Source: Selaginella moellendorffii (Eukaryota; Plantae; Lycopodiophyta). From it: a stretch of 64,000 nt of DNA. Below are positions 5,554 to 49,199 of this stretch, in pieces (the stretch's first letter is position 1; every line of letters begins with the position of its first letter). A program made the translations under genes and the position numbers. The DNA is taken from NCBI RefSeq assembly GCF_000143415.4, contig NW_003314286.1, positions 387,766 to 451,765 on the forward strand. The letters run 5' to 3'. Under the pieces are notes generated by a model. The model saw only the letters and a program-made list of their open reading frames with translations, made no database searches and was not told where the DNA came from.

Positions 5554-5660
5554 AACTTTGCCACGCTCATGGTATCCAAATGACAAATAATCTATGTATG
5601 AATCGTATATAGTTCATTTAGATTACTTGGAATCATGGTCAGGATCGCTAAGCGGTTCCT

Positions 5661-6100: not shown

Positions 6101-6320
6101 TAAACCCATGCAATTACCGTATATTCATGCACCCAATTCCCATATATGCAACCATGAGCTAGATTAAAGCCCATGCTGTCGTAAGAATTTATAGAAATGC
6201 AAAAAAGTAGTAATCTAGATTTCAGAAACTGTTTCTATAAGGCGGTTGCCGGAGTCAAAGTAAACTTTCAAGCATGAACTTGCACAGGGGTCAAAGGAAC
6301 ACGCGTTAAGTAATGCTTCA

Positions 6321-6507
6321 GATGTCGATCAAAATACTGATCCTGGTGTTGCTCGTGTCTACCGAGCTATCCAGCGGGTGTGGGAGAATGACGTGCCCGA
6401 TCCCGGCGTGCGTGATTTTGGTGAACAAGGCCCACGGCCTGTCGGTGAACTGTGGCGATTCCAGGAGTTTAGCAGGGCGGAGGGCTGGAGCATATAATGA
6501 TCTTTAA
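6321..6507 (+). pseudogene. Small secreted Cys-rich protein, copy 2 (internally deleted relic)
   Basis: MSIKILILVLLV..ELSSGCGRMTCPIPACVILVNKAHG matches the other copies with several deletions. Shares the upstream block GAACTTGCACAGGGGTCAA..CACGCG. Confidence 0.75.
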
Positions 6508-7109
6508 CACAGTCATTTGAATCCCTGATAAAGAATATTCTCTTCTTATGTAAATCTTTGTGATTGGTTACGATTCATTCTTCCCAGAAAACGTGTATGA
6601 TGTTCTGTTCATTTCAGATTACTTGGAATTCACAATACGTTACTTTGGCCTGACAACGAACAAAAACTAAACAACTTGCTCTCGCATAAAATTTAAAACC
6701 CGGGATACGATAGCATGGAATTCAGCGCAGATGAATGATAGCCTTGCGCCAAGATTTCTTCGGCAGCGATCCACCCAGTTGAATCTGCCAATGTAACTGT
6801 GGATGCTTTGACACGGCAACTCGACATAGTGATTAGGTGTAGACTAACTACATTAAAGACCATGCAGCCATGAATTTCTAACCACGTAGTAATCTAGATT
6901 TAAAACGCAGTAATTTCTCATGCAACCACGTTGCAAACTATTCCCCGAGTGAAAGTAGAATTCAAAGTCAAGCATTCATATCCGCGAACTTGCGCAGAGG
7001 CCAAGGAGCACACGCGTGTTATGTAACGTTAGGATGCTCCTGCGTATAAGTTCCAAGCCTTGGCTCCAACCGAGAAGCATAACGAGCATCATATATCAAG
7101 ATGTGCGGG

Positions 7110-7478
7110 ATGTCGATCAAAATGGTGATCCTGGTGGTGCTCGTCGCCATCGGGCTGCGCGGGCTGGATGCTGGCACCGTCTTGTTCAGGGACGCCGAGC
7201 TGTCGAGCGGGTGTGGGAGGATGACGTGCCCGATCCCGGCGTGCGTGATTCGGGTGGACAGCGTCCACGGCTGCACGGGAGGGCAGACGGTCTCAGTGAA
7301 CTGCGGCCAGTGGAGGCACTTCCAGGAGTTCAACGATGTTTGCCAGGGCGGGGCGCTGAGCATCGACTGGGGGATCGAGCCGCTCAGGCTCCAGTTCAGG
7401 AACAACGCCGGGGACTTTGAGGAGTGCTTGCTCCAGCAAGATTTCAATGGCGCCGAGTATGGATGTAACATGGGCTAG
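7110..7478 (+). CDS. Small secreted 8-cysteine protein of unknown family, intronless (copy 3, intact)
   Basis: Signal-peptide-like MSIKMVILVVLVAIGLRGLDA followed by a ~100-aa mature domain with 8 Cys. GC-rich coding sequence, TATA-like GTATAAG near 7044, and two paralogues nearby. Confidence 0.75.
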   Translation: MSIKMVILVVLVAIGLRGLDAGTVLFRDAELSSGCGRMTCPIPACVIRVDSVHGCTGGQTVSVNCGQWRHFQEFNDVCQGGALSIDWGIEPLRLQFRNNAGDFEECLLQQDFNGAEYGCNMG

Positions 7479-7778
7479 GACTTTATAGTCACTAGAACCA
7501 AAGACTATACAGCTTGTACGGTATGATATCTCTGCTTGTTCTTTGTCTAATATCATACAATCACAAATATTAATCTAATAATCTTAGATTGATTACATGA
7601 CCATCATGGTGTGAGGAATTCACAAAAATGTTTGCGTCTGATACTTTGGTTTTTGCTAGAGGATCGATTGGAGCTTCCAGATTAGTGCGCAATGTGATCG
7701 ATTGCATTGATAGGCAAAATCTGGTGTCCAGTATAAATGTACAAGGAGAGACGAGGAGGTCTCCCTTCGTCTTATACT

Positions 7779-14900: not shown

Positions 14901-17900
14901 GACCATCACGAGCTGGTAACAAAGAGAAGAAACATCTCTTTTTACTTTTGTAGTTCATACAAACTTTGGTTTGTTTGTCTCATAGCAATCTGTGGTGTCC
15001 ATACCCAAGATTTCTCAACTTGGAGTAAGTAGGATTGATTATAACTTGTCTCTTTTGAAGTTACCTTTAGAAGGACGATGTCATTTCTTTAGTGACTAAG
15101 ACACTTTTTTTGTTTTTCTCTTACAGGTTCAAATCCCAACGTTGTGGTAAACATATGGAGAGAACCATCCTACGGGCTGTCATGGCCGTCACTACCACAG
15201 CCTACGAGTGAGCGGGCCATGGCAGTCAGGGCTTGGTCCCAGGGCTGTAATCTGCAAGCGGCTCACAGCCATGAGCCATGGCTGAGAAAGCGCTATGAAC
15301 ACAAAGCTAATCTTGCTGTTCGTGTTAGTTGGGGCTGGTCAGCACTCCAGTAGCTCAAGGCTAGTCAATTGGTAGTTTTTATTAATTGTTATAAATTAAT
15401 AATAGTTCTTGAGACAAAGAATTTTACCCTAGACCTAAACAATCTCAACAAAAGGTTAAATTTTAAAGGACTTTTTATTATGCTATTTTGGACCCATAAA
15501 GTGTTCCTTTGCTCAAAAAGAATGTGGAGCTACATTGGACGTAACTCTTCAGCCTAGTTATAGTTAAATAGGGGAAACTATTTCTGTTTCTCTTTCGCTA
15601 GCTGGAGGTAGCAAATCAACCTATCGTCGATCCATGGCCCCTGTAACAACGGTCAACTCGCACCTGGCATGGGTTTGCGATGGCCATGGCCAGATAACTG
15701 GTAGTAAAACCAGGGCTATATGGATGGATGGCTTTTACATGATTTTGCCTTTCTTACTTGCATAGGAAGAATCTGTTTTGTAACTACTATTCATTTATCA
15801 TCAATTGATAAATTATATTTACAAAAAAAAACTTTATTTAACATGAACAAGTTGTGAGTGCATGGAATATGGAAAGGGAATACATGTGCATATCAATTAG
15901 CCAAAAACCCTAACTTGTAAGGAGTAAGTGGTCCGGATTGAAATCAATCCAACAGCTACTAAAATCTCATTATGCTAATATTAGTATACTGTATTATAGC
16001 TGTACACTTGGACTTCACATCATCCCCTCTTCTCGGAATAATGAAAGACCATCAAAGTTCTCTTGTAGATGGGTTGAGATCTGAACAAGTGTTAGGAGAA
16101 GACATCGGCAGATTTATAGGTGGTATCAGTTGTTCTTGATCCTTTTGTATGAAGTGTTTCAACCGCTGCACATACACAATTTCTAGAGGATCGGCCTATT
16201 GGACGTCATGCCAAACCTTATAAGCTTGCGGTCCAACTTGCCGTAATACTCGATATGGTCTTTTCCACTAAGCAAGGAACCCCTTAGATAAACCATATAC
16301 CATAAAATGGGGAAAATAGACCAACACCAAATCATTCACTTTGTACTTTGCAGGTGGACGATGATGGGAGTTGTACCACCATTGTTGTCCCACTTGTATG
16401 CAACTTAAGTGTTCGGCAAATTTTGTTTGAACAAATGGAAGAATGTTTATCAAATAACCCCACAACCTAGCATTGGCAACTTGTGGCAATTACAAAGGTA
16501 AACCCAACTTTGTTAGTAATATTGGATCATGACCATATAAAAGTTTATATGGTGAAACATTAACAGAATTTTACACCCCTGTGACATATGCATATTGAAG
16601 AGACGGCAAATAACCATCCCAATCCAAATGTTGAAAGTTCATATACTTCACGATCATTCATTTGAATGTCCAAACGAGCCATTCCACCAAACTGTTTGAC
16701 TAAGGATGATAAGCACTCGTGAAAGTATAGCGTATCTCCAACCGAGACATCAAAACATGAAATGTTACAGCCATAAATGCGGGACCATTATCCAAAAGAA
16801 TCCACTCTGGACAAGAATATTGGAACACCACTCGATTGAGAAGGAAGTATTCAATAGCAGTTGCAAAGGCACTAGTAAAAGCACCAACTTCCACCCAACG
16901 AGTTAAATGGTCAAAAACAATAATAATATATTCATTACCAGCAGTCGATCGTGGAAAAAGTCCCATAAAATCAAATGCCACCAACTTAAATGGACGGGAA
17001 ACTGCAATTGACTCTAACTGTTACAAAAGGGAGTATTATGAATTTGGCACCAAATGTAGTTACGCACATCTCAAATAACATCACGTCGCATCTCCGGCCA
17101 ATAGAAGACTTGTGCAGCTTCTCAGTCACACAACGATGTCCCATATGCCCGCCTAGAACAAAAGAATCATGTTAGACATGGAGAAACTGTGGAATAAAGA
17201 CAAAAGGCACCACCAACTGTAAAGGATCATCAGGATCCGTCCCCACAAAATAAAGAAGGCCATCTTCAAGGCAATACTGAGAATATAAATGCTGGAATGG
17301 CAAGTCATCAGCAAGTGATACAGAATTCTCAAACCCATCTCAAAGCCTTAGAATCCATGGCTCAATTTTTTGAGCCTCACAAACCTCATCAACAAAAGGT
17401 AGATCTTGCTATGCACGTTGTGGACACTGAACATCAAGTACAGTAACTGCCGATGGCACAGAATCCTCATCTAAAAAATCCATAGATGCTGGAACAACAA
17501 GCTCGTCAAAAACATGAGAAAAGAGTGGAGAAGGAAGAGGAGCTCGAGAAAGGGCATCAGCATCAGCCATAGGACTCCTTGGGCGATGAACAACATCAAA
17601 ATCATATATCTGAAGCTTCAAAATCCACTAAGCAGTACAACCAACTAGATTCTTTTACTTCAATAATGAAGTAACAGTAGCATGATCACCTTCAAGTAAC
17701 ATTTGAGAACTATGTAGATATGCATGAAGTTTCTCGAAACCCCAGACTTCTGCTAAACACTCCTTCTTTGTCGTGGAGTAGTTTACCTCCGCTGATTGTA
17801 ATGTATGGCTTATATACGCAATGGGATGGTGCTAACAAGGCACACTTGGGCTCTCTTGCATCAACACATTTCCAAGATCAATATTAAAAGCATCCATGCA

Positions 17901-19958
17901 CAAAATAAAAGGTCAAGTGTAGTCAAGATATGCTAAAATCGAAGGATTCGTTAATAGTTCTTTGAGATCCACTAATGCCCACTCTCAATACGGAGATTAA
18001 ATGAAAGATGACGTTGATGATTTCAGCAATGCTTGCAATGGTGCTATGCGATTAGAAAGATAATCCACAAAATGACCAAGATACTGCACATTGCTCAAGA
18101 AGCATTGTACATCATTCACACACTTCGGAGTAAGGAACTTTAAAATAGCCACAAGTTTATCAAGATCAACTTGTAAACCCTTAAGAGAAATATAGTACCC
18201 AAGATAAGTTGTATCCTTGGACCCAAACACACACTTTGACCACTTCAGCTTTAAAATAATATCCCGTAGCCAATTCAACACTTTACAAATATTAATGTCA
18301 TCCCATGTTGATGACGAATATACTCCTCCCACATCCCTTCGAGTGGATCAAGACATCATCAATGAAGTCAGTAGTCACCTCCGGCATATTACAAAGAACT
18401 TCATCCATCATCCGTTGGAAAGTTGTTGGAGAATTGTTCAAACCAAATGGTATTACCAAGAACTCGTACAAACCAAATGGTGTATGAAAAGTAGTATTAA
18501 AAATATTTTTTTTGGCCATCGATATTTCTCAGTACCCAGAAGCAAAATCTAGCTTGGTAAACTAACGACTTTGCCCTAGATGATCCAAGAGATCAGCAGT
18601 ATGAGGAAAAGGGTACGCATCTGGGATTGTCACTTCGTTTAACGGATGGTAGTTAATGCAGAAATAAATACTTCTATCAGACTTCATCATAAAATGAGGT
18701 TCACATGCCCAAAGATTCCATGACTTCCAAATAACACCCTTCTCTAACATCTTCTTGATGTTTGCACGTAAAATCTTGATTTCTTTAGGTGACTGATAAC
18801 GAATAGAAACCTTGATTAGATGAGCATCCCCAATTGGAATCGAATGACGTGTGGCAATCTTGGCCCTAGACAAAAGTCAAATTCAAAGAGATTAGAATAC
18901 TCCTTCATGAGTCAGTCAACCGTTGCAACACAAAGATTGTCGGAGGGATTGGAAAAGGGAAGAGCAGAACAAGATGGAAACATAAAAGGAAGTAGTGGGG
19001 GGACAAAAGTAATGGAAGTAAATGTAAAAGTAAAGGGACGAAAAGGTACAGAAGTAAGAGGAATGAATGAAATATAAGGAAGTATGAGATAAAGGGGAGA
19101 AGTCTTAAAGTTATATTTGGCATAATTGCATTGCAACCAATCCATACCAAGGATGAGGTCAAAAGCTTGACTCAGCACCACCCATAATGATTGCAACCCA
19201 AACTCAAGATCACCCATACGCACAACTAGGTCCGCCTCATCCCGTGGACATACATGTGTACAGCTGTTGCCATAAAAAATGAAAACTAGCCCCACCACAC
19301 GATGCAAGTGTAGATGGCAACATGTGACAACAAGTCGAGCAATAGAAGATAAACTCAAACCTGTATCAACTAACATGGAGAGAATAATAGGAGACGGCTT
19401 GTTATAAAAACGAGTTTGGAAAGTAAACACTGGATGAATTAGTGCTGAGTGAACCCCTTGATGATACTTCGGAAAAAACAATGGAGAGGTCATTGATTTA
19501 TTCACATAAAATCCCTCCGTTACTCGCATGACTCCTCGTTTCCCGAATGCATTTTGGTGTTTAGACTTTCCACTACAGCAGCACCAACAAGACATTGTTG
19601 ACACCAAGGTCTTCACCCAGGAAATGGTGGCTATCAATCTGGAAAATGCCAACAATGCCGATAAATGTGACCAACTTCATCACACGCATAGTAATGAATA
19701 TCACGACCATAACCACAGCCTTGCTCTTGTTCTTGGACTCAAATAGTAGCAGCATCAACCTCTATTGAAACAAGACCATCACTTACAGGAAGTGAAGCTA
19801 AAGGACGTGCAACAAAAAGTGGAAGAGGCAATGTCTCATAATGTTGTGCCAAGCAAAGAGCATTGTCAAGGGTGGTGAAAACAAAAGCATGCACAAGTCC
19901 GACAAAATTTTGATGAGTGCTAGCCATAACATTCCTAGCTTGATCCGCTCTGACATAT

Positions 19959-25695: not shown

Positions 25696-26332
25696 GAATG
25701 GTATACAATATCCTTCTTTGATGACCCTGTAAAGAAGCATCTCGATCGGACACCACATGAGACCACACGAGCCTTACAATGTTTCAGGGGCATTTGCCAT
25801 AGATCCAACCGTTATTTTGCTCCAAGATTCTACAGTTTGGTGTGCATTGACCTTTCCATCGACACTGCAAAGGGACATCACAATCAGATGTGGGATCACA
25901 AGAAACCAACTTCACTAACTCTGGTTTCACCAAGATCTACGTAAGGAGTTATGAAGTGAAAGGACCCTCTCTATTGAAATGTGTTTATGGTCCTAGGGGC
26001 ATTGTGACATATCAAAGGATTTTGCATCAAGTTCTGTATTTGCATGTTTATCAAGCTACTGAATTGCTAAACCCTAAACCCTCCCTAAATATGTGGCAAA
26101 TGCTGCGTGAAGAAAGATGCCCTTTCTGGGCAAATGCTGTAAGAGGCAGATGCCGAGCAGTTACACGGCGAATAATCTTGGCGCAGATCGCTGACATGGC
26201 ATGGCAAAGTTCGAATCACTGACATCGCACAGCTGGATCGAGGCAAGGACATGATGTGACAAAGTTCAACGTCCGACAGCAAAGTCTAGAAGCTACTTAG
26301 TTTGAAATTTGTCAGAGGAATTATAAGATCTG
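25696..26332 (+). repeat. Internal segmental duplication of the TIR element (second copy ~34071-35120)
   Basis: 25696-26156 matches 34071-34530, 26160-26332 matches ~34925-35097, and the match continues after the gypsy insertion at 33841-33860. Confidence 0.85.
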
Positions 26333-27482
26333 TGTAAGGAACCAACTCGCCGAGGTGTCGTAGGCTAAAGGAACCCTAAAAGCATGACCAAAATGACAAA
26401 GAGTTCATCGGGTGGGACCAAGTCGAAGATCGAGTCCAAGACCGACTCTAGGACCGAGTTCGAGATCGAGTCCGGAATTGAGTCCGAGACCGACTCGAGG
26501 ACCGAGTTCGAGTCCGAGTTTGAGACCGAGTTCGAGACGGAGTCCAAGATCCGAAATCGGGTCCGAGACCGAGTCCGAGGTCGAGTCCGAGGTCGGGTCC
26601 GAGATCGGGTCCGAGATCGAGTCCGAGATCGAGTTCGAAACCGAATCCGAAGTCGGATCCGAAATCGGGTCCGAGATCGAGCCAGAGACTAAGTCCAAAT
26701 ACTAATACGGGTCAAGGGTGAAAGCCCAAAGCGTGCGTCTCCCAGGGGGGGGGGGGGGGCTGCAGGGGGTTCCAAAAGTATAGTAGGGATAGTGAGGTCC
26801 AGGAACCAGTTTAGAAGGGACTCTCCAGTGGGGCTCCCAAACTGACTTGAGGTTGGGACTGGGACCGAGGGGCCTTGGGTGGGAGTGAGCATGGACTTGG
26901 TTGGTGCCGGAGGGGCCATCCAAGGAAGTGCTCAAGAGCAGCTCCCACTCCCGAAAGGGAAACCGATCGCGGTGCTCCCGGCTCATGTGGAGTGGTGCCC
27001 CACTTGAGTACCATGCGGCTCATTGGTCCTCGCCCTTCCTAGGGGCTTGGGCCTTCCTTCGGGATGGAAGTGGGGGGCGAGAGGTACCCATACCGGGCCG
27101 CTAGGCCACGGTGTTTCGCCCCGGCGTCCCGAAGCAAGCGTTGCCCTCAAGACTTGGGATTTAGAGGTCCCATGATCAAGTCTTGTGGTACCAAAGGATG
27201 TTAAGAACCTGGAAGCTTGGTGTGCTTGGCTGCTTATGCTTGCGGGGAGTGTAGCCGAACCTTAAGTCCAGTCTAACCCGGGGAGGGGGATTGGGAGTGA
27301 TTTGGGAATCCGTGGATGGATGGCTAACACTCCGTTGCTCGTGCAGTGAGTAGCTGAGACCAAGTAGGAGCTGGTACCATAGGCGAGAACCTTGGCAAGG
27401 GAACTTAGCAAAAGCCAAGGCAGTGTCGGACGGATAGACGAGGTAAGTTGGCAAATTGGAAAGGAAAAATTTGTGGCTTACA
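26333..27482 (+). repeat. 5' LTR (1150 bp) containing an array of 12-bp units (GAGTCCGAGATC-like, ~26422-26690)
   Basis: Near-identical to 32712-33835; differs by scattered substitutions and a 24-bp (two-unit) indel in the array. Confidence 0.95.
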
Positions 27483-30400
27483 ATTTGGTATCAGAGCCTT
27501 TATCTCAGTTCTAGCGAAGGATAGAGGCGGATTGCTGGGAGATGGCAAGGGCAGGGCGTAAGCGAACCCAGGTAGAGACGGAACCACCGTCGGAGCTGGA
27601 GCCTCCGGTCGAACAAGAGGCTATGGATGAGGAATCCTTGCATGAGGAGGACTCTAGTGAGGAAAGTTCCAAACAGGAGTCCGGTGGCGAGGTTCGGTCG
27701 TCCAAGGCTTGATTGGACGTGCTAGAAGGACAGTTGGCACAGACCAATGCCCTGCTGGAAACTCTCGTACGCAAGCTAAAGCGTGACGAGAGGCGGAAGA
27801 AAAAGAAAAAGACTGCGGATGCTGGCAGCGCAGAAGGTGCGGATCTTTCGGCCGGGACTGAGGCAAAACCAGACAAGGTCGAACAGACTGAAGTAGAATC
27901 AGTCCCTCAGGCAGTTCCCGAGTACAAACCAAAGCCCCCACCGGTCTTCAAGGGAGTGAACGACTATAAAGTGGTGGAGGATTGGTTTTACGATATGGAA
28001 GACTACTTCCGAGCATTGCGATTACCGAGCTCGGAGAAGGTCCCATGTGCAAAACCATACTTGGCAGATAATGCCAAGTCTTGGTGGAGAACGACAGAGG
28101 CCAACGAAGGACCAGTGGCCACTTGGGACATGATGAAGGCGAGGATCCGCGCAACATACGTTCCTCCGAATGCCACTCTACATCTGAGAGATGAGCTGAG
28201 TAGGCTGAAGCAGACTGGAACCATCCAGGAATATGTGAATGGGTTCATGGCAAAGAGGATACTTGTCACGGACATGGGGGATATGGATGCGTTCCATGCC
28301 TTCATATCAAGTTTGCAAACCTAGGCTCGCGGTGAGGTGATGCGGTGGAACCCGACCAACTACAAGGAAGCGTTGGATGCGGCCATCAAGGTGCATTTCA
28401 ACGATAACCTGCGAAAGGGGAACACGACGGGGTCGGGATCCACATTTAGCAAAGGGGCCAAACCAAGGGGAATGTATAGCAAGGGGAAATTCAAAAAGAG
28501 TTTATCTAAGAATGAGTCCTTGGGGTTCCGGAAAGGCAAATCCGGTGGCCAGCGAGCGAGTACGTGGGGGAGTCAAGCGAAAAAGGACAAACCCACAGAT
28601 AAGAAGGTCAAGTCGTATAGCAGCGTGGGAAACAACGTATGCTACAACTGCGGCGAAGCGGGACACTTCTCGAGGGAATGTCCCTACCCGAAGAAGGCCA
28701 GAGCCAATATGGCCATCAAGTCGGGTGAAGTCCAAACTGAGGTATGTGATCCAGTCCTTAACTCAAAGTTACTCATTACACGAGCAACTTTGGTAGAGAG
28801 TCGTTCGCGACATCTACTAGCCCTCCGAGGGAAGCTTAGAGGTAGCTTTGTTAAGATCCTTATTGACACGGGTGCTTCGGATAATTTTGTGGCTGCAGAC
28901 ATAGTCCGACAAGCCGGACTAACGGTGCAGCGGCTAGGCGAACCAAGGACTATAGAGTTTGTTCAGGGTAGCCAAAGCACCGATGAGGTACTTCGACAAG
29001 CGAGAGTTGAAGTGGGGACATGGAAAGTGGACATGAATTTCACCGTCTTGGACATGGCGGGATTTGACGTGATCTTCGGAATGGATTGGTTTAATCGGTT
29101 CGTGGTAGCCCTGCATGGACAAGGTAGGAACCTTGTGGTATTGGCGAATGCCCAAGGAAGAAGATCTAGGGTGGAGGCCCAGGATCTAAAGGTAGGGCAA
29201 AGCAAGGCCAAAGAGTCATGCTTAAACTTGGTGTCCACGAGAGGACAACTCACTAAAGGAACTAAGGCAGCCTTTTTGTGCTTACTCTCGGTGAAGAGTG
29301 ACAAAAAGACAAGAACGGAAGAAGTACCTTTAGTGATCCAGTAGGTGCTGGACCAATTCCAGGATACCATGCCGGAGGAGCTACCGGCGGGGTTGCCCCC
29401 CGCACGACCGATAAAACATAAGATTGAGCTGGTCGAGGGTGCTGAGGCGGTGGTTCATCCACCCTATCGATTGAACGAAAAAGAACTCAAGGAGCTCAAG
29501 AGCCAACTAGAGGAGTTGGTGGACAAAGGGTATGTTAGGTTGAGCAAGTCGCCGTATGGGGCGCCGGTGCTATTTGTGAAAAAGAAAGATGGATCTATGC
29601 GCATGTGCATAGACTACCGGTTGCTCAACAAGTATACCAAGAAGAACAAGTACCCTTTGCCAAGGATCGAGGACCTGTTCGATAGGTTGGGAAAGGCAAA
29701 ATACTTCTCGAGGATTGACCTAAGGTCAGGATACTACCAGATCAGGGTAGCTGAGGAAGATGTCGAGAAGACAACCTGTCGAACGAGGTATGGGAGCTTT
29801 GAGTTTCTGGTGATGCCCTTTGGGCTGTGCAATGCACCGGCAACATTTTCGGCGTTGATGAACCACATCTTTGTACCCTATCTGGATCACTTCGTGGTCG
29901 TCTATATCGACGATATCCTGATCTATAGCGAGACGCTAGAGGAGCATGCCGAACACTTGGCGAAGGTGTTTGAGAAACTAAGGGAACACAAACTGTATGC
30001 TAAAGAGAGCAAATGTGACTTTGCTCAACAAGAAGTAAAGTTTCTCGGGCATGTGGTGGGCCAGGACGGGCTCAAGGTGGACCCGGAGAAGGTCCAAGCG
30101 ATCCAGGAATGGGAGCGGCCTTCGAATGTACATGAGTTGAGGGCGTTCTTGGGGCTATGCAACTACTATCGAAAGTTTATCAGACACTATTCGAGAGTAG
30201 CCCTACCCTTAACGGACCAAACAGGAAAAGGGAAGATGGTATGGACAGCGGAATGCGAGGCGGCATTCGTCCACCTCAAAGGGAAGTTGAGGAAGGCTCC
30301 GGTGTTGGCATTACCAGATTTTGGTAAGGACTTTGAGGTAGACACAGATGCTTCGGACTTTGCGTTGGGTGCAGTTTTGAAGCAAGACAACCATCCAGTA

Positions 30401-31415
30401 GCGTTCTTCTCGAAGAAGTTGGACAAGGCTCAAAGGAAGTGGCCTGCCCACGAGAAGGAATTGTTTGCGGTGGTTAAGGCGCTCAAGGAGTGGCGACACT
30501 ACCTTGGGAGACACTTCAAGGTTTACACGGACAATGTGGCAACGAAACACTTCTTGTCACAGCCCGACCTGAGAGGGAAACAAGGTCGGTGGGCCAATGC
30601 CTTGGCCGAGTTTGATTGCGAGATTTTGTACAAGCCTGGGAAGAGCAACATCGTGGCAGATGTGCTAAGTCGAAAAGCGAGCTTGAGGTTGGCGATATCC
30701 AGCGCAACAGCAACCTTCTGGGACGATGTGCGGACAGCATATGAGAACGATGGTCTAGCACAAGAAGTGTTGTTGAGGAATCTGGAGGCGCGGGAAGCTC
30801 ACTAGAGAGGTGAGCTGCCAACGGAAGAGAAAACGGGCTATGCGGAACGCAACGGACTCATTTATTACAAGCAAACGAGGGTATATGTTCTAGAAGGGGG
30901 ACTAAAGAAGGTAGCCTTAGAAGAGTGTCATGACGGACCTTTTGCGAGACACGGCGGAGTGCCCAAGACGATGGGCTTACTCAAGAGGAAGTACCATTGG
31001 CCAGATATGGCTAAGGACGTCCAAGACTATGTAAAGACATGTCCAACATGTCAGCAGGTCAAAGCCGTGACTAAGGCTAGTGGGGGCTTGTTGCAAAGCA
31101 TCCCAATTCCAGATCGTCTGTGGAAATGTCTTACGATGGACTTCATCACGGGACTACCCCCAAGCGAGGGGTTCGATGCGATATTCGTGGTGGTGGATTG
31201 ATTTTCGAAGATGGCACATTTTATACCCACCACAACGGAAGTGGATGCGGAAGGTGTGGCGAAGCTGTTCTTCGAACAAGTGGTTCGAGTGCAGGGAAGG
31301 CCAGAAGAGATTATCTCAGATCGAGATAAGATCTTCACTAGTAGGTTCTGGAGGACCCTCCTGGAACAGTATTGCACCAAGTTGAAATTCAGCACAGCCT
31401 ATCACCCACAGACAG

Positions 31416-31462
31416 GTATGGGGTATTAAGTCAAGTTTGGTGGTCCTAACACTTCTTGACAG
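31416..31462 (+). other. Spliceosomal-type intron (47 nt) in the retrotransposon integrase core
   Basis: GTATGG...CTAAC...GACAG. Removal restores HPQT-DGQTERVN. Confidence 0.85.
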
Positions 31463-31880
31463 ACGGACAAACGGAAAGGGTGAATAGGCAGCTGGAGGAT
31501 TATTTGCGATGCTATGTCTCGGGAGACCAGACCGATTGGGCAAGTCATTTGGGACTTGCGGAAATGTGTTATAACAACTCACCACATTCGAGTATCGGGG
31601 TGAGTCCATGGGAAGTCATCAATGGGCGAGCTATTGAAGGTCCTGTGGAACTCGGCGTGGCCGAGTATCATGGAGAGCTACCCGCAGTGGAGGCATTCAC
31701 GGCGGAAAGACTCAACATTTGGAATCTAGTGAGGGATTCCTTGGAACGGGCTCAACAAAGGCAAACCAAGTATGCGAACCTAAAGCGCCGGGATGTAGAG
31801 TTCCAAGCTGGGGAGAAGGTGTGGCTGAACACCAAGAACCTCAGGCTACCAAGTGGGATCAGCCGAAAGTTGACCCAAAG

Positions 31881-31932
31881 GTAAAAATGCATGTATTCCT
31901 GTAAATGAATTGATCTTGAGTTCCTAAAGCAG
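31881..31932 (+). other. Spliceosomal-type intron (52 nt) in the integrase GPY/F region
   Basis: GTAAAA...AAAGCAG. Removal restores RKLTQR-FAGPYEIEARIGKVAYRLRLP. Confidence 0.85.
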
Positions 31933-32711
31933 GTTCGCGGGGCCTTATGAGATTGAGGCACGAATCGGTAAAGTGGCTTACCGACTCCGACTTCCTCGAG
32001 AGATGGGGAAGATGCACCCAGTGTTCCACGTGAACTTACTCAAGCCGTACTTTGAGGATCCGCTTCGCAAGGACCAAGTAAGACCTTTACCCGAGGTTAT
32101 CCAAGGGGAAGAGGAATACGAAGTCGAGGCCATCCTCAATGCGCGCAAGAGCAAGCGACAAGGACGCGAGGTGAGAGAGTTCCATGTGAAGTGGAAAGGA
32201 TTTCCACACTGCGAAGCAACATGGGAACCGGAGGAGAACCTAGCGAACGCGCGAGATCTAGTGGAGGAATTTCTGCAAGGCAAAACTCTATGTACTTATG
32301 CAAAGTTCAATTAAAAATATCAATTTGCAAAGTTGAGCAAGTGGCATATGTTGGGACCCGAAGGCGCGCCGAAGGTGAGCTAATTAGCATGGGTTAGCTA
32401 GGTCGACCAGGCGTAGGGAGCTACGCCCGACTCCCTGCGGGGATGTCGAATCCGTAGACGTATTCTACGGAGGTTGGGTTCGAGTCCCAACCCCCTAGTA
32501 AAGCAAGGCTAGGTTCAAGTCCCAACCCCATACTAGGGCGTGGTGAGGGGAGGAGTATAGGGACACCTATATTCCGTTGTCATGGGCTCTTGGCCAGGGA
32601 GGCTAACTTAGGCACACCGCTAAGTGGGGGGATGCCCCCGGAGACATGGTCAACAAGTCGTAGGATAAAACGAGACATTCGATGTGGGTATCGAACTTCT
32701 TGTGGTGGAGT

Positions 32712-33835
32712 TGTAAGGAACCAACTCGCCGAGGTGTCGTAGGCTAAAGGAACCCCGAAAGCATGACCAAAATGACAAAGAATTCATCGGGTGGGACCAA
32801 GTCGAAGATCGAGTCCAAGACTGACTCTAGGACCGAGTTCGAGATCGAGTCCGGAATTGAGTCCGAGACCGACTCGAGGACCGAGTTCGAGACGGAGTCC
32901 AAGATCCGAAATCGGGTCCGAGACCGAGTCCGAGGTCGAGTCCGAGGTCGGGTCCGAGATCGAGTCCGAGATCGAGTCCGAGATCGAGTCCGAAACCGAA
33001 TCCGAAGTCGGATCCGAAATCGGGTTCGAGATCGAGCCAGAGACTAAGTCCAAATACTAATACGGGTCAAGGGGTGAAAGCCCAAAGCGTGCGTCTCCCA
33101 GGGGGGGGGGGCTGCAGGGGGTTCCAAAAGTATAGTAGGGATAGTGAGGTCCAGGAACTAATTTAGAAGGGACTCTCCAGTGGGGCTCCCAAACTGACTT
33201 GAGGTTGGGACTGGGACCGAGGGGCCTTGGGTGGGAGTGAGCATGGACTTGGTTGGTGCTGGAGGGGCCATCCAAGGAAGTGCTCAAGAGCAGCTCCCAC
33301 TCCCGAAAGGGAAACCAATCGCGGTGCTCCCGGCTCATGTGGAGTGGTGCCCCACTTGAGTACCATGCGGCTCATTGGTCCTCGCCCTTCCTAGGGGCTT
33401 GGGCCTTCCTTCGGGATGGAAGTGGGGGGTGAGAGGTACCCATACCGGGCCGCTAGGCCACGGTGTTTCGCCCTGGCATCCCGAAGCAAGTGTTGCCCTC
33501 AAGACTTGGGATTTAGAGGGTCCCATGATCAAGTCTTGTGGTACCAAAGGATGTTAAGAACCTGGAAGCTTGGTGTGCTTGGCTGCTTGTGCTTGCGGGG
33601 AGTGTAGCTGAACCTTAAGTCCAGTCTAACCCGGGGAGGGGGATTGGGAGTGATTTGGGAATCCGTGGATGGATGGCTAACACTCCGTTGCTCGTGCAGT
33701 GAGTAGCTGAGACCAAGTAGGAGCTGGTACCATAGGCGAGAACCTTGGCAAGGGAACTTAGCAAAAGCCAAGGCAATGTCGGACGGATAGACGAGGTAAG
33801 TTGGCAAATTGGAAAGGAAAAATTTGTGGCTTACA
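32712..33835 (+). repeat. 3' LTR (1124 bp)
   Basis: Direct repeat of 26333-27482, followed by TSD ATCTG. Confidence 0.95.
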
Positions 33836-35614
33836 ATCTGGTTTGTCAGAGGATTTGATGTGCCGTTCAAGCGTGTGGGCTCATGCAATTTTGATCCCAA
33901 AAAATGCACCAAAAAATGCTCGGCGTCATCTGGCGTTATCTCTTGAATGGCATGGGGCCGCATGCCATTTTAAGGGGCACATAGGAGTATATTCTTAGAA
34001 TATTCTGACACGCGCGAGATTTTTTTGAGTTTTCTGGAGATCCAACCGTTAGATCGCAACTAGATTTTACAGAATGGTATACAATGTCTTTCTTGATGAC
34101 CCTGCAAAGAAGCATCTCGATCGGACACCACATGAGACCACACGAGCCTTACAATGTTTCAGGGGCATTTGCCATAGATCCAACCATTATTTTGCTCCAA
34201 GATTCTACAGTTTGGTGTGCATTGACCTTTCCATCGACACTGCAAAGGGACATCACAATCAGATGCGGGATCACAAGAAACCAACTTCACTAACTCTGGT
34301 TTCACCAAGATCTACGTAAGGAGTTATGAAATGAAGGACCCTCTCTATTGAAATGTGTTTATGGTCCTAGGGGCATTGTGACATATCAAAGGATTTTGCA
34401 TCAAATTCTGTATTTGCATGTTTATCAAGTTACTGAATTGCTAAACCCTAAACCCTAAACATGTGGCAAATGCTGCGTGAAGAAAGATGCCCTTTCTGGG
34501 CAAATGCTGTAAGAGGCAGATGCCGAGCAGATGTATCTCAGGCTAGCGAAGGGGACAAACGAAAGCTAGCTATAAACATGACGGGATGCAAATAGATTAC
34601 TAGGCTGGTCCTACGAAAATCAAAAACCATAATTAAAAACATTGAAAATGCAAAAAGAAAGGTTTATAATATTTTTGAATTTTAAGCAACCAAAGGAATG
34701 TAAGTAGGGCATGTGTTTGTAAGTTTAAAAATGCCTCAACCACTTAAATTCCCAAGTAAATAAAGCTATTTCTATTTTTGGTACAGGTAAACTTTATAGC
34801 GTGTGGGCTCATGCAATTTTGAACCCAAAAATGCACCAAAAAATGCTCGACTAGCATTATTCTTTGAATGGCGTGTGGCCTTATATTGCCATAAATGGAC
34901 GTACACACACAGCATAATTATTCCTTTACACGGCGAATAATCTTGGTGCGGATCGCTGACATGGCATGGCAAAGTTCAAATCACTGACATGGCACAGCTG
35001 GATCGAGGCAAGGACATGATGTGACAAAGTTCAACGTCCGACAGCAAAGTCTAGAAGCTACTCAGTTTGAAATTTGTCAGAAGAATCATAAAATCTGGTT
35101 TGTCAGAGGATTTGATGTGACGTTTAAGTGTGTATTATTTTTGAATTCTCGAACTCATTCCTAGGTTTATCATTTTTGTGCGCCGTGTTCTTGGTTCCGC
35201 TGAGCGCAGTGAGCGCTGCTTGTGTAAGCGGCGTTGTGAGCTGTGGTTTATGCGTCTACGAGCGGTTGCGGCATTGTGAGCGCCATTGCGAGCGGCAGTT
35301 TATGCAAGTGGCAGTTTGTGCGAGCGGCGCTACGGTACCACTAATGGTATGAGGGCTCATGCCATCTTGGGGCTTGCAAGTTCATCACTAGCATATTGCT
35401 AATAGTTTCTTTACCTGCCTGTAGCTGTGTGTTTATCAAGATGGCATGAGGCCTCATGCCAATTTTGTGAATGCAAAATTTTACGTGGGTGTCAATAGCA
35501 TGTTTGAATAATGGCATGTGGCCTCATGCTATTGAGGTTGTTTGGTATGTTATGATTTAGGCCATTCTCCAATCATTTTTTGTATGGTCTTAACTTTTTT
35601 TCTGCACTTTCAGA

Positions 35615-41212: not shown

Positions 41213-43881
41213 CGGGCATAAGATTAACGGTGTTATAATTATTCTCTTTCAAACTAGCATTGTTATGAATCATGACATTGAAGAAATTTTCCCATTTTCG
41301 TTAGTAATGTTTTATAATTAACATATAATTAATAACTTTAAATTATTAAATTAAGATGTTAACTAGTTTTATATTTCTAGCATTTATTAGCATTTTTGCT
41401 AAAAATATTTATAATTAAACTTAATGTTATAACTATATAATATTAACCATTTCAAGGGAAATTAATAGAATACCAACTTCTTTTAGGTCAATGTTTCACA
41501 AAGATATTTTATCAATCAATTCAAATAACAATATTGGATTACCATTTCTGTTTTGAATACAATTGAATTCAATAAGTAAAGTTGAAATAATGCTAGGATT
41601 TTATATAAAAAAACCATTATCTGAAATCTTAGTTAACTCTATGGCAACAAATATATGATTGCACATGCCTACATTATATATTTACACATGTGCAGATTTA
41701 TATTTTTGTTTTGAGTTGCATGCAAAAAATATTCAATCACTTTTTGATTGTTATATATAGGTAGTAATCAATTATTATAGAGGTGAGCTTGATTGATTAG
41801 AGCATGAAGGTGAGCACAAAGCCTTTTGTTAGATGTTTGGAGTGTTGAGTGAAATGGTTTTCCACAAGTAAGTGAATTTTACTGTAGTTGTAGTAAAGCA
41901 TTAATTCCATTGATTTCCCACATTTATAATCATGTGTACATATTTTTTACATTATAGTGATTTATTACTCTTGGGCATGTTGGTTTGTTGTGCTTGGGAT
42001 TAATGTGTAAACTACTTTCCATTACCTTCACTAATAAGAGTGTCTAAAGCACATGGCAATAACAAACTCAACCTACAACATCTAAAAGATGCTCAAAATC
42101 CAACTCATCTAAACCTTGCTTATATATTATAAAATTTGTTGTGGAGTCAAAATTTATATAAAACAAACTCACATACATGGCACTGACCTGGACTTTTGAA
42201 TGCATATGTGGCAAATGAAAGACATGCTCATGTGTTGAAAAGAAATTTTATCAAATTTTTTTTTTTTATAAGCCATATATGTGATGTGTTTTTATTTCAT
42301 ATATTTCGTAAGCTTCTACATTTTTTTGCTAGGCCACCCACCCTAGGTATACCTCCCCCTTGAGAGGTGTGCCTCCCACAAAAAACTGTCATTATAACTT
42401 TCTTTGAAACTATTTTATGGCCTGTGGGATTTAAGGTTGGAACACCTTAGGCTTCACTCTTTGTTCATTTCATTGGTACTGGAGATAGAACTCTTATTTT
42501 TAAATAGTAAATTCTGCAGCTTCATATATTATTATTTAAAAAAAAACCATTTCATCATTACCTATTATGTCAGAAAATATAATATTTAAAATGTTAATCA
42601 GAAAATAAATATAGATTCATATAACTCCAAAAATCAACAACTTAGTGCATCAAAAGCTAAATATTAGATGTGATTATTTTATATAGACCTTAATAAAAAT
42701 TATATCAGCATGCCACATCAATATTTATTGCCAACACAATTTTTAGTCTCTTGAAATAAAAATTCACATTTATATTTAGATTGTACTTTAATAATATATG
42801 CAGCAAATAAACTTCTATAGGTAAAAAATATAAAAAAGATCTATAATTTTTGTAAGATTACAAGATGGGAATCTAGTTTTATATTGTTCTGGTGAAAATT
42901 ATTTATGGCATTCAAATACTTACTGTAATAATAAAAAATGCCATTAAAATTTATAGTTGTTATTGCAAAGTGATTATAACTTAATTTTTTACATATCAAA
43001 TAACATTAAATATTAAGTCATTAATTGAACCCGTATGGCATTCTGGTAAAAGAAGTTCAATAGACCAATGTAAAATCCATTTGCATTTGTAAAGTATTAT
43101 CAAAATAATTGTTGTGTATTGCATTACAGCTGGTTTTTTGTTATACATTATCTAATATATTTATTTTGTTACAGTTTTCTAGCTATTATTACTTTTACAT
43201 TCTTTAAAATATCTTTTATTTTTTATATTGTGCAATATTTGGTTTTTCTTCTTTATTTTCTAAATATTATTTTTACTATATTTTAATTTATTAAATATTT
43301 TTGATATATTTTATAATTTCTATAATTATTTATACCAGGTTTTAAATATATTTATTATTATTTTATTATCATTTTGATTTATTTATAATAACATAAATTC
43401 TTTTTAATATAAAGTTACTCTTTATATATTATTTATACCAATAAATATATAATATATAAATATAAGTGGTAGTCCAGAATAATATAGTTAAAAAATATAC
43501 AAATTTAAGAAATATATATTTTGCTTAATAATTGGAAAAGAAGGACTTTGTGGAAGAATGTTTCCCTTATGTGAAAATGGTACTTGTCATTTTTCCTAGC
43601 ATTTATTGATAATCTCTTGGAACACTTGTTTCCATATTAGTTTTTGTATAGCCATGAATTCCCAACACCCTCGGGGTGGTCACTCTTATATAATTGTATA
43701 TATCATCTGCATGTACAGATTGGGGTTATTTTGGGTGCAAACCGTACGTATACATACAGGCCTTAGGGTTGAGTTTAATTTGAAAAATTTCGTAGGTACG
43801 GGTAGGGGCGGAGGCAGAGCTCCTCTAGGGTTCTCTACAGTAGCAGGCTGTAGAGGGCAATAGATCTCAGGCACAGTAGGT

Positions 43882-46800
43882 ATGGAGCGTGATGTTATTG
43901 TGTATGTAGAGGATGGGGATCAAAAGAAGCCTGTGGGTTTCGTTAGGGTTCAGAGGGAGTGTTCTTATCATCAGCTCCGCGAAGCTATTGTTTCAGACAA
44001 GATTGAGGGTCTTGTTAAGAGTGATTTTGTCTTCTTAGGTGCCCTTTCCCTTGCAATGACATGTAGGCAGGAGAGATATCCATTTTTTGGAGCTAAAGTT
44101 CTGGTTCGTGTGCTTAATCTTGTAGTAATAGAACCAATTCAAGAGGGGCAATCTTCAGTAGCAACCAGTGAAGCTCATGAAGAAGATTCAACTGGATTTT
44201 TACCTGGTTTGAATTCCAAACTTGCTTCAGCTAGAGATACATGACTGGAAGAGATCGTTCAAGCAGAATGAGAGAAAGTTGAGAGCAAAAGGGAGGAAAG
44301 ACAGGTTTGAATTGTTTTCATATGACTGGGATGGATGTGCTCACTTCAAAATCATGTGTCAGGAGTGTGGAATTGTTTATGGAGGAGGCCTGAAAGACAC
44401 CTGTTACAATTTCGTTTCAAAGCACTGCAGTGGAGCTAGGCATGAAGCAAACTACATGAAAAATCAGCTGCAGCGGGAGAAAAATGATCAGGAAAAAGCT
44501 GATGCGGAAAGTCCTATAGAGGGTGCTAATGAAGGTGCTAAACTTGCTAGTCATGAGGAAATAAAAAACGAAGTGGAGAAGCTGATGAATGAAACCGTGG
44601 AAAGGTTTTGCGATGAGAACAATGTTTGCTTCACTCTCTACGAACTAAGTGTAGGAAATTTTGAGAGAAGGAACAACATTCGGGTTGTNNNNNNNNNNNN
44701 NNNNNNNNNNNNNNNNNNNNNNNNNNNNNNNNNNNNNNNNNNNNNNNNNNNNNNNNNNNNNNNNNNNNNNNNNNNNNNNNNNNNNNNNTTGCAAGCATTG
44801 TGAGGAGACGTTAATGCTTTTTCCTCCTGCCGGGAGTCTCCTGAACAATTCTGATGGTTCACATTTCTAGGAATAAGCACAAGAATGCTGGCCGAGAAAG
44901 AAGCACTGGAGGTCGGCCAACTAAAGTTGCAAACATTGACAATAAACAAGGAAACCTCCTTAGCTATTTCACACGAGGTAAGAAATTGCATTCTAGTTTT
45001 TGTAAAGTTAATAATGTGTGTCGTTTAAATTTTTTCAGGAAAAGGAGTCTTGTCAAGCAATTCTTCTCAGAACTTCATAGCATCTCCAGATGAGTCTTCA
45101 AGTAAGTAGCATTTCATATGCTTTACATAGTGTGATTTCTTGTATAGTATAATCTGTTGTATGTTGATAGGAATTGAAAGACTTTGCTTTGGATACTGGC
45201 AAAACGATTACAAATATGGCTTGAGTTCTGTGAATGTTCGTCCTCTTCTCCAAGATGTAAAAGAGGGAGGTTGTTGGTTCTGTGATCCAAACTTCAAAGC
45301 AGCAGCAGATGGTGTTGTTGTCAACGGAACATTCAGATCAAAACAGTGTCTAAGAGTGACAAACAACATCTATGGATTCAAGAACAAGCAGTGCAAGTTT
45401 TGTATGACAATACCAGCTTGTAGTGACTTCAAAGGACGTGCTTTACGGGAAAGCAAAGCGACAATACCACAAGGACAAAGATTGAAGAGGCGTGGAATGA
45501 GACTTGACTACATGACTACAGCTGAGCACATAGATAGCAGCAGGCTAGTGCAAGCAGAGAATAGAAGGCTGGCATTGGAACTATCGACCACAAGATGCAG
45601 GATAGCAACTCTTTCAATTCATTGCTGAAGCTTAAAAGAAACTTTGAAGGAAAGTGCCATTCGTAAGGATATCAGAAAATTCAACTCTGATCTCAAACAA
45701 GCTTGGCAACAAGGCAAATTCGAGGGCAAGGAGACGGTTCTTCACGTGATGCAAGATTTGCTGCAGGGAATAACTAGGAGAAAACAAGGAATGAGGTATT
45801 TTTTTATTTATTCAAAGTTTTTTCCTTACACTCTTAGCAGGTACCATGAAACCACGAAATGGATTTTGCGAGTAACAAAAATGTGGGGGGGGAGCAGGCT
45901 TAACAACTTCCTTCACTTGAACCTTGGATTGCCAAGTTTGTCGACAACAAAGCGTGACATGAGAACAAACTTTAGATGCACAACAGGTTTGCAATCTGAG
46001 ATATTTTTGAACCTTTCTAAGGTCTACAAGTTCAAGATGGAGAGTTTACAGCTCAAGCTAGGGAGTGTGCCTGTTTTGATTGCAGAAGACGAAACAGTTA
46101 TTAAAAGGATGATCAGATGGATTGCTTGTGATGATGCTTTGCTCGGGTTTTGTGGAAAGAAGGGGGAGGGTCATAAGTGTGTGAACGATTTTGTCGTGAA
46201 GGTTGGGAATGGAGAAGTAGGTTATGAACAGATTACTCAGGCTTTTCTAGACAACGAGAAAGCTCACTATGCACAAGTGTTGATGGTTAATCCATTGCAT
46301 AGACAGTTGTCGTGCTTGGTTCTCTCTATTCAGCTTACTTGCAATCGGTTTACAGCTTCAGATGTTTGACACAATGGAACTTGATCCATCAAATATGGGG
46401 ACAGCACCTTCACAATGTTGTTGGCCCCCTGATTGGCCATTCATCAGATGGAGATCAGAGAAGGCGTAAACTAATGCTTGAAGACATGAGTCTAGGGGAT
46501 ACAACAACAGGAACTTACTCTGTACCTTGGTCAGGGTGGCTATTCTCTGGAAAGTGGAACTCAACAGGGAACCTTTTGATACATGATCAAAACTATGTGC
46601 ATAATGGGAAGAAGCTGATCAATCCATTGCATAGTGCAATAAGACAACTGTTTTTGGGGGATGAGTTTGTGCATTTGAATGACATTTGGGAAGTTTTCGA
46701 TAACTTTCATAGTAAACACGGACTGCAACTCGGGGATGTTAGGCGCTCTGATAGACAAAACTGGGGTGCTGCTCAGCGACTTTGTAGCAGGCCAGTGCAA

Positions 46801-48285
46801 GCATGTCTTTCGATTATGCAAGAAACAACATACAGAAGACCTTCACGTACGCTGGGAACCGAAACTTATCTTGCTGTGGTGGCATCATATATTGATATCT
46901 TTTTGCACCCATACTTGAGCCTTGGAGAGCGAGTGAGAGCTGCATCAATGGTGTCCTTCTTCTTTCGTTTATGGAGGTTGTGGATTCTGAAGGAAAGCAA
47001 GTGGAACTTGAAACACAACTTCATCAGCAAGGAAACCTTCTTGGACATTCAATTATCATGTCACTTTGTCGTCCTTCTAATCAGGTATGTTTCATATATA
47101 TTTTTCTTTTGTTAATTTTGCTTTTGAGATAGATATTTTCGGGATCACCATTCATATTTGCCAGTCCCAATTGATAGAACCAGTTCTAATGTTTGTGAGA
47201 ACTTTTTCTCCAAAATAGGAGGAATGATTGGGAATGAACGGTGTTATGACGGAGCTGATGTTGTTCATAGTGCGACTAGTATGAACATGCTAGCAGAATG
47301 CGAGGCAGCAGGTACATTGCTTTTCTCTAAAGCTCACAGGAAACAGGAAAATATTTGGGAAAAGATAGAGCATGATGGGAAGAGAGTAGTAGCAAACTTA
47401 GGGGATTACAGTTCGGTGGAGACAGATGCTCTGATAGTTAATGAGCTGATTCAGGGTAAAGCCAAAGCACAAGAACTTCTTCATGGCCTTGGCATCTCTG
47501 GAAGAGATTGGTGGGATAAACCTGAAGATTTTGAGGATTTTCACAAGGTTTCAGAAAATTCCGGAGAGCATGATATAGTCGATCAGTTTGAAGAGGAACA
47601 TATAGTAGGAGAAGAAGCTACTGAAGAAGCTATTGAAGCAGCAAGTGAACTGAGGCATACTTTTGATGCTGTTCTGGATCATATTGAAGATTCTGAGTCA
47701 TTAAAAGTGGAAGCAACAGTTTTGGTTGACAGGAAGAAAATCTGCAAGTCGACCATCGTTTCTCAGCTAAATGGAAATCCATTTCTCTCCAAAGATCGGC
47801 TCACACGGGTGAAGAATAACTTGACAGTTTATGAACCAGGAAGAAATCTCAGTGCACAAACAGCTCTTGGCATTAGGAGTGATTGTGCATTGTGGTTTGA
47901 AGAACAGGAAGGAAGTCATTTGAAGTTTGTTTGGTATGTTGGTCGAATTCTTTCCATGAGGAAAAAAGTGAACAATACCTGGAGGGACACAAGGGAAGTG
48001 ATTGAATTAACCAATCTTCCAGTTGATTCTGCTGATTTTCAAATGAACCTATGCTACTACAAGGAATGTGATGCTCCTAAAGCTGATGACGGAGGGAATT
48101 CATGGTATACATACAACCTTCATGATAATATGCTAGTGGAACTAACAAGTTTGATTGCTTTGGTATCATTATCATATCATCTAGAAGCCAAGAGATATTT
48201 GCTTCCACACCATGATAGGGAAGTTTTTGATAATTTCATCAAAGATAAAAGCAGGAATATCAATTGTCGTAGAAGGGTGAAATAA
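43882..48285 (+). pseudogene. Intron-containing DDE transposase, P-element-like, with N-terminal zinc fingers; nonsense codons at ~45626 and ~46367
   Basis: CQECG..H..H zinc finger, AEDET (D1), SSDGD (D2), QNYVHNGKK (DxxHxxK-like) and SNVCENFFS (E). Short AT-rich introns. Confidence 0.65.
44689..44788. other. Assembly gap (100 N)
   Basis: Run of 100 n. Confidence 1.
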
Positions 48286-48303
48286 TGTTTTTTATTAATG
48301 GAA

Positions 48304-48377
<74 letters not shown>
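48304..48377. repeat. (TA)n microsatellite
   Basis: About 36 TA units with one TG interruption, inside the transposon 3' region. Confidence 0.95.
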
Positions 48378-48380
<3 letters not shown>

Positions 48381-49199
48381 TTATGCAAAAATAACCAGAA
48401 TATTCCACGTATATATAAGAATTGGGGGTTTATTTAAGATTGAAAAAATGTGTATATGTAAGGGTATGGGGCAAATTATGAACAACAAAAAAAGTATACT
48501 AGGCCCCCTATTCTAAACTTCCAGAACACAGATGATATATACAGTTATATAAGAGTGACCACCCCGAGCCAACACCGGTCTTGATGTTTCACGTTAAGGG
48601 CTTTTTGTCTGGGTGTAGCTGCCACTCAAGGTCTTGTGTGATCCCAGTCAGTCCTCTAGGGAGATTGAGTTTTGAGGTCCATCAGGCTAAACACAACCAC
48701 TCATCTAGCAAGGAATGATAGACTGTTGAGTGTTGAATAGTAAGGGTTAGTCTCCAGGAAGCTTTTGTTGCATCCATTAGTGTGCATACCCTAAGATCTG
48801 CTAGCTAGTGATCTAGAAGTTAGTGGTACCATCATTGAAACATGGGAAAATAACAAGAAGAGAAAACTGATTGCACCATATTACTTATATAATTATTTTT
48901 GCATATTTAAATAATAGACATAATTATTATAAATATATATCAACTATTAGATGATAAAATAAACTAGAATATACTTACAAATTTTTAGAAAAGCTTATAA
49001 ATCATTAAATATATTTATAATTTATAAACAATATGCCAGAATATCCAAGTATATTCTCTTTTAGATTTGCTTAAGAAAATCAATTATGGAGAGTATGTAG
49101 GCATAACTTTTCTTTTCCTATTACTATGAGAGAAAGAGAGACAATAAAAACAATAAATAAGAAGAGTGTTACTACTAGAAATATTTATGTTGAACCCTA

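Follow-up and report, generated by a model that had tools for sequence, protein, structure and literature searches.

Two short spliceosomal-type introns split the integrase of a chromodomain Ty3/gypsy retrotransposon family in Selaginella moellendorffii

The integrase frame of a high-copy LTR retrotransposon in the lycophyte Selaginella moellendorffii is split by two spliceosomal-type (U2-type) introns of 47 and 52 nt, and both are found across the family. The copy described here lies in a 64,000-nt stretch of contig NW_003314286.1 (positions 387,766 to 451,765), which is referred to as the window and supplies the coordinates used throughout. It is very probably a dead copy of a chromodomain Ty3/gypsy family whose introns are spliced out in transcripts and kept in the genome, with unspliced RNA likely being the form that is copied and active integrase likely being made from the spliced mRNA only. 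The evidence comes from the anatomy of the element, its genomic copies, contigs of presumed transcripts, and the pattern of variation in the exons.

Structure and identity of the element

The complete element spans 26333-33835 (7503 bp), and both of its LTRs have TG..CA ends. An earlier note, made from the sequence alone, had described a complete provirus with two LTRs, a primer-binding site (PBS), and a duplicated target site of 5 bp (TSD), and this description was borne out, with ATCTG as the TSD and the PBS at 27486. The features are as follows:

26328..26332, + strand: left TSD, ATCTG; the same 5 nt recur at 33836-33840
26333..27482, + strand: 5' LTR, 1150 bp, TG..CA; a 12-nt tandem array is followed by a G15 tract at 26745
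27486..27497, + strand: PBS, tRNA-Met type, from the sequence and from the tRNA-Met PBS given for SM1-Galahad in the available text of PMC3350952
27542..31415, + strand: exon 1, encoding Gag (CCHC), protease, RT, RNase H, the integrase H2C2 motif, and the first two Asp residues of the DDE triad (Pfam)
31416..31462, + strand: intron 1, 47 nt, phase 1, GT..AG, with a CTAAC branch-like site and an in-frame TAA at 31427
31463..31880, + strand: exon 2, encoding the catalytic Glu of D,D35E (31474), the remaining integrase core, and the start of an SH3-like domain
31881..31932, + strand: intron 2, 52 nt, GT..AG at an AG/GT proto-splice site, with TAA at 31882
31933..32314, + strand: exon 3, encoding the rest of the Tf2-type SH3 domain and the chromodomain (Pfam PF24626, PF00385; synonymous bias)
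32280..32332, + strand: AT-rich tract, earlier proposed as intron 3; candidate internal poly(A) region
32712..33835, + strand: 3' LTR, 1124 bp, with a G11 tract at 33101
33836..33840, + strand: right TSD, ATCTG

The LTRs, the TSD, and the domain order Gag-PR-RT-RH-IN are those of a Ty3/gypsy chromovirus, and the chromodomain expected after integrase is present in exon 3 (PF00385, E 1.3e-16). Pfam matches place all exon 1 domains from Gag to the integrase core in one frame, and the SH3-like domain and chromodomain in other frames. The frame that opens at ATG 27542 and closes at TAA 31427 comprises 1295 codons; the exon 3 frame ends with the stop codon at 32312-32314. Five further in-frame stops, at 27710, 28322, 29342, 30803, and 31199, were missed by the earlier note and mean that the window copy is dead. 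Its LTRs are 98.4% identical (1104/1122 aligned bases), and the differences comprise 18 transitions and 0 transversions. The 12-nt tandem arrays (26416-26742 and 32771-33097) differ in length between the LTRs, and each is followed by the poly-G tract. The PBS at 27486 is presumably complementary to tRNA-Met. A polypurine tract was sought upstream of the 3' LTR, where the window copy has only a weak purine-rich stretch.

The element is nested in a repeated unit of ~0.9-1.3 kb (25713-26332 and 33836-35133), whose copies include short runs of the telomere-like sequence AAACCCT (near 26070 and 34445). A joint between 26327 and 33836, as expected of an empty site, occurs in five contigs of DNA run X1 at a depth of 573, and represents either other copies of the unit or an allele free of the insertion. 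Elsewhere in the window, a possible DNA transposon at 43670-48568 is bounded by inverted repeats of 40 nt (98% complementary, 4.8 kb apart), which enclose several long ORFs that match no Pfam family (44213-48285) together with an N gap at 44689-44788. Three related, short, GC-rich ORF regions at 5097-7484 are 84-90% alike and resemble a small tandem gene family. Host genes on the minus strand at 54965-60700 comprise a RING-finger ORF together with a TOD1/MUCI70-like gene for a glycosyltransferase, the latter having short introns.

The element itself has been described before. The accessible text of Novikov et al. 2012 (PMC3350952) reports SM1-Galahad of S. moellendorffii as a multi-copy consensus of ~7.5 kb with LTRs of 1076 and 1146 bp, poly-G tracts of 11-25 nt, a tRNA-Met PBS, and hundreds of copies that are ~95% alike. 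The same source gives it an ORF of 3885 bp (1295 aa) without a chromodomain and two additional ORFs of 316 and 309 bp, the last containing the chromodomain, and its survey recorded no intact copy. The sister family SM2-Galahad is presented there as a single 1577-aa ORF that includes the chromodomain, also in hundreds of copies. The window element agrees with SM1-Galahad in size (7503 bp), LTR lengths (1150 and 1124 bp), and poly-G tracts (G15 and G11). Its downstream ORFs measure 318 and 309 bp when stop codons are left out (321 and 312 bp when they are included), so that the first is 2 nt off the published length. When both inserts are removed, the frame encodes 1557 aa, close to the 1577 aa of SM2-Galahad. 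The window element is therefore likely SM1-Galahad, an identification drawn from these described features and the short introns of the host rather than from sequence alignment. Published excerpts on the Galahad/Galadriel clade set its tRNA-Met PBS against the mostly self-priming Tcn1 (PMC6317226; PMC3350952), and the tRNA-Met-type PBS at 27486 fits the clade. The nearest RT-RH matches are 56-61% identical and carry no clade labels. Because the 1295-aa ORF of SM1-Galahad comes from a consensus, the stop within intron 1 is a trait of the family. Neither "intron" nor "splic" appears in the main text of PMC3350952 or in its supplement text (39,202 characters), figures apart, and its text, as far as available, treats as separate short ORFs the pieces that are joined here by splicing. 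The introns and their splicing are thus apparently the unreported part.

Evidence for splicing of the integrase frame

The earlier note had read 31416-31462 and 31881-31932 as GT..AG inserts that break the frame and introduce stops at 31427 and 31882 if retained, and all of these particulars hold. Its statement that excision restores the conserved motifs is also correct; without insert 1, exactly 35 residues separate the second catalytic Asp from Glu 31474. The pieces encoded by exons 1 and 2 are separated by exactly one residue in 79 of 80 homologues. One-residue spacing was found at junction 2 in 22 of the 34 homologues scored; in the remainder, alignment is poor or the spacing departs from this by a small number of residues within a variable loop. 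Exon 2 matches residues 1269-1388 of Ty3 Gag-Pol (7q5b; E 0.0003) from its first residue onward. Shuffling of the inserts (50,000 shuffles each) gave GT..AG in any register with a chance of 0.013 per insert. Further frame-breaking introns upstream were considered and rejected for the stretch from protease to integrase, where full-length homologues align without other frame breaks.

The inserts are of host intron size, because they measure 47 and 52 nt and the four homology-supported introns of the MUCI70-like gene in the window measure 50, 60, 61, and 71 nt. The AT-richness emphasized in the earlier note is modest for insert 1 (GC 0.43 versus 0.52 in the exons), and insert 2 has a GC content of 0.33. 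The T content of the introns (0.33-0.34) compares with 0.33-0.44 in the host introns, and the long U-rich 3' tract of the latter is absent. The final 5 nt of intron 1 are identical to the end of exon 1. Repeats of 5 nt and 4 nt at the two junctions fit a duplication at insertion and point to no source. The earlier note had also pointed to an older gypsy element at ~16700 with the same integrase motif uninterrupted. This was confirmed by tblastn, but the element is decayed and very distant, making it a weak control. The old, decayed Ty3/gypsy remains at 16200-19400, on the minus strand, retain protease, RT, and RNase H, and the integrase is ~21-25% identical to the homologues tried.

The whole element is deeply covered by contigs of DNA run X1, in which the depth over the intron 1 and intron 2 bins is 0.57 and 0.80 of the median exon depth, respectively. 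Variants of the family occur inside both introns. None of the best 40 of 54 variant rows hits the GT or AG of either intron, and these rows include six within intron 1 and one within intron 2. Most copies read CACTAAC at the branch-like site of intron 1 (variants 31444 and 31445), and positions +4 and +5 of the intron 1 donor vary among copies. The earlier note had allowed that the inserts might be indels confined to this copy. That reading was rejected, as DNA contigs cover both inserts and the published SM1-Galahad consensus has the intron 1 stop and, after it, two short ORFs. Skipping of an intron in DNA was not seen among the best 15 of 24 joints listed or among the best 15 of 201 in X1. 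The lowest depth among the listed joints is 121.6, comparable to the 108-165 of individual long contigs, and rare variants are dropped from contigs; an intron-less copy may therefore exist in the genome at or below approximately single-copy depth.

Transcript-type data were contigs of runs X15, X17, and X18 (three studies, and three of six such runs), which are presumed to be RNA; that nature is a guess, and contigs give neither strand nor level. Both introns are skipped together in X15, on a single 2500-nt contig (record 8, depth 11.2) whose pieces 31340-31410, 31458-31878, and 31931-32261 are continuous in the record. X18 lacks intron 1 in record 12 (depth 3.1) and intron 2 in record 13 (depth 7.3). 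The skips are exactly 47 and 52 nt and match the GT..AG cuts after slides of 5 and 2 nt; they were read from the table of contig pieces and are absent from the top rows of the joint table. The outcome that the earlier note had regarded as fatal, a transcribed family without spliced reads, was thus not what was found, given the precise skips in X15 and X18. Unspliced forms were also present, since record 9 of X17 retains intron 1 and runs to 31885, and record 10 begins within intron 2. Variants 31845, 31854, and 31855, which are rare in DNA, are common to X17 and both spliced contigs, and 31642 is shared by X17 and X18. Closely related templates therefore give both forms. A nonsense change at 31627 in transcribed copies of X17 and X18 means that at least some transcribed copies are dead, and the splicing seen may come from such copies.

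In three raw RNA-seq runs (12% of each), almost no reads fell in the internal region, and no junction was listed (joints need 3 reads). Raw RNA reads did match short LTR stretches (26952-27307 and 33071-33104) before continuing into unrelated sequence, a pattern suggesting that host transcripts of other loci contain pieces of the LTR. A protein search for the spliced product (243-2000 aa) returned a best match of 49% identity and none from the SM1-Galahad family, which is weak evidence.

Variation in exons 2 and 3, which use different frames and lie beyond the point where translation of unspliced RNA would stop, bears on whether the spliced product was used. Thirteen of the 14 exon 2/3 variants with a DNA share of 10-90% (listed rows) are synonymous in the spliced frames, where about 34% of possible transitions would be expected to be so. 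The same proportion, 13 of 14, falls at third codon positions (binomial p 6e-6 against one third); this p value is indicative only, because the count draws on the best 40 of 54 rows by support, variants are linked in subfamilies, and two share a codon. When all listed exon 2/3 rows are taken, 23 of 30 are synonymous. The synonymous bias in the spliced frames indicates integrase under selection through the spliced mRNA and, as a pattern read from sequence, says that, during the period in which the family multiplied, its integrase was probably translated from spliced RNA.

Proposed roles of spliced and unspliced RNA

New copies keep the introns, so the RNA that is reverse transcribed is likely the unspliced one, which would also be the packaged form. 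As the packaged genome, this RNA would be translated to a 1295-aa Gag-PR-RT-RH protein ending just before the catalytic Glu. The product of spliced RNA would be a polyprotein of 1557 aa that includes the whole integrase and the chromodomain and that could enter the same particle by co-assembly through its Gag part. In this way, a single-ORF element would produce less integrase than Gag and RT. Beyond the examined region, the X15 contig continues upstream for another 1677 nt and, if collinear, reaches ~29663 within RT; the message that is spliced is thus probably a full Gag-Pol. This modifies the model in the earlier note, in which unspliced RNA is packaged and integrase is supplied in trans from a spliced mRNA. 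Its core stands, since both RNA forms exist, the introns persist in genomic copies, and spliced RNA must be the source of integrase, but the spliced RNA is probably full Gag-Pol and not an integrase-only message. The statement in the earlier note that splicing controls transposition is, in the sense of a regulated switch, a possibility.

The earlier note had further proposed a third intron, of GC-AG type, at 32280-32332. No splicing was seen there, and record 11 of X17 passes through the tract. Donor position +4 differs in 95% of the DNA depth, and of three loose-end variants two are missing the acceptor AG. The stop codon at 32312 lies ~15 residues past the chromodomain, a tail length that falls in the range seen among homologues. 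Of all 40-nt windows in the internal region, the most AT-rich falls in this tract, which contains TGTA at 32291 followed by AATTAA at 32309, an order that we take to resemble plant poly(A) signals. By its composition, it may be a candidate internal poly(A) region and not an intron. Coverage by the spliced contigs of X15 and X18 ends at 32261 and 32266 without a loose end, and nothing from these runs covers the stretch up to 32400, across which the DNA continues. These ends lie ~50 nt before the stop codon and could reflect a fall-off in coverage; they give a weak hint that the spliced RNA ends ~400 nt before the 3' LTR.

Passage through RNA reliably strips sense introns, a property exploited in the standard retrotransposition reporter. 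In this family, cleavage and polyadenylation of the spliced RNA might take place within the AT-rich tract that follows the chromodomain, ~400 nt short of the 3' LTR. An RNA ended so early would have neither the PPT nor the 3' R region and could not serve as a template, and the retention of the introns would thereby be explained. Early polyadenylation is only tentatively put forward, on weak inference, as the reason that spliced RNA escapes copying; preferential packaging of unspliced RNA or a low efficiency of splicing would be alternatives. In its fullest form, the proposal is that two micro-introns gained in integrase became a replication switch, that splicing together with polyadenylation before the 3' LTR yields a full-enzyme message that cannot be copied, and that the introns were thereby shielded through hundreds of retrotranspositions. 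This extended form is possible, though somewhat short of probable.

The introns could instead be real and have no regulatory role, if splicing were inefficient, mostly unspliced RNA were copied, and a little spliced RNA sufficed for integrase. The variable +4 and +5 positions of the intron 1 donor, the missing long U-rich 3' tract of host introns, and the retained introns in X17 all agree with such inefficiency. The only contig placed from X15 is fully spliced, however, and a self-sufficient intron-less copy should spread, yet none appears among the best-supported DNA joints; the absence of any role is considered unlikely. It is also conceivable that a small number of intron-less genomic copies, derived from retrotransposed spliced RNA, are the true active masters and the source of the spliced contigs. 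Those contigs do carry variants that are rare in DNA (31845, 31854, 31855, and 31699), and the DNA joints listed are the best 15 of 24, but three of the same rare variants occur in the intron-retaining contig of X17. Young copies such as that in the window (LTRs 98.4% identical) carry introns, so their parents did too, and the published consensus has the intron 1 stop. Such masters are accordingly judged extremely improbable.

A different challenge comes from SM2-Galahad, whose intact, intron-less copies might move an integrase-defective SM1-Galahad, the inserts then being lesions that happen to be spliced. This would accommodate the stops in the window copy and in some transcribed copies, as well as the record, in the available text of PMC3350952, of no intact SM1-Galahad alongside hundreds of copies of the single 1577-aa ORF of SM2-Galahad. 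It does not readily accommodate the 13 of 14 common exon 2/3 variants that are synonymous in the spliced frames past the unspliced stop, or a frame of 1557 aa without both inserts that is close in length to SM2-Galahad, and is regarded as very unlikely. The preferred reading remains that unspliced RNA is likely copied and that active integrase likely came from spliced mRNA.

Relation to known systems and significance

Plant LTR elements are described as generally intron-free in a 2025 review, with Ogre and EVD as exceptions (PMC12786077). The available text on Ogre (Tat clade) describes one retained intron between gag-pro and RT-RH-INT (PMC6317226, PMC4408406). The two systems are alike in that a sense-strand intron is kept in genomic copies and removed from some transcripts to give the full polyprotein. 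The Ogre intron is a single ~274 bp spacer between ORFs, as far as those sources describe it, and gates RT, RH, and IN together. The family described here instead has two ~50-nt introns inside integrase, one of them four codons before the catalytic Glu; only integrase and the chromodomain are gated, and the element is a chromovirus rather than a member of Tat. An intron of the Ogre type is absent, as gag to RT form one frame without an insert. In EVD and other Ty1/copia elements, a spliced and early-terminated shGAG RNA makes Gag only, and the consulted portion of the same paper reports no conserved splicing in Arabidopsis Ty3/gypsy elements (Oberlin et al. 2017, PMC5580714). Spliced and unspliced RNAs coexist in both cases, and the coupling of EVD splicing to early termination is a model for the weak hint obtained here. 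The logic is opposite, however, since the unspliced copia RNA is described as making Pol and the spliced RNA Gag only.

Foamy viruses provide a parallel in one respect, as their enzymes, including integrase, come from spliced mRNA and their genome is unspliced (PMC7828637, in part). According to the same partial source, their pol mRNA is spliced so that gag is lost and Pol is made as a separate product, with no small introns in the integrase frame. Penelope-like elements also keep introns after retrotransposition, which is called highly unusual in the available text of bioRxiv 10.1101/2021.04.23.441226, but differ in their non-LTR chemistry and GIY-YIG endonuclease and have no DDE integrase. 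Cer1 is described, in the text available, as making an export factor from spliced RNA (PMC10309623). No report of introns inside the integrase of an LTR element was found in the literature searched; most subscription papers and Repbase lay outside the search, and prior mention is possible. The literature found on the Galahad element or clade does not mention introns in the element.

When metagenome contigs were scanned for the pattern of an intron in the same integrase motif, the 1 match lay in an importin-like ORF and was rejected as chance. Loci related to exon 2 were not confirmed in viral contigs (10 pattern matches) or prokaryote genomes (54), as expected for a plant element.

The introns of this family represent a dated gain of introns by a gene whose homologues have none. 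The arrangement would add a further route by which a single-ORF element can limit integrase relative to Gag and RT. Because the introns distinguish genomic RNA from messenger RNA, they are a natural marker with which the choice of RNA for packaging is testable in plant LTR elements with existing data. Annotation based on ORFs wrongly calls such families non-autonomous, and similar cases may be overlooked in genomes with short introns.
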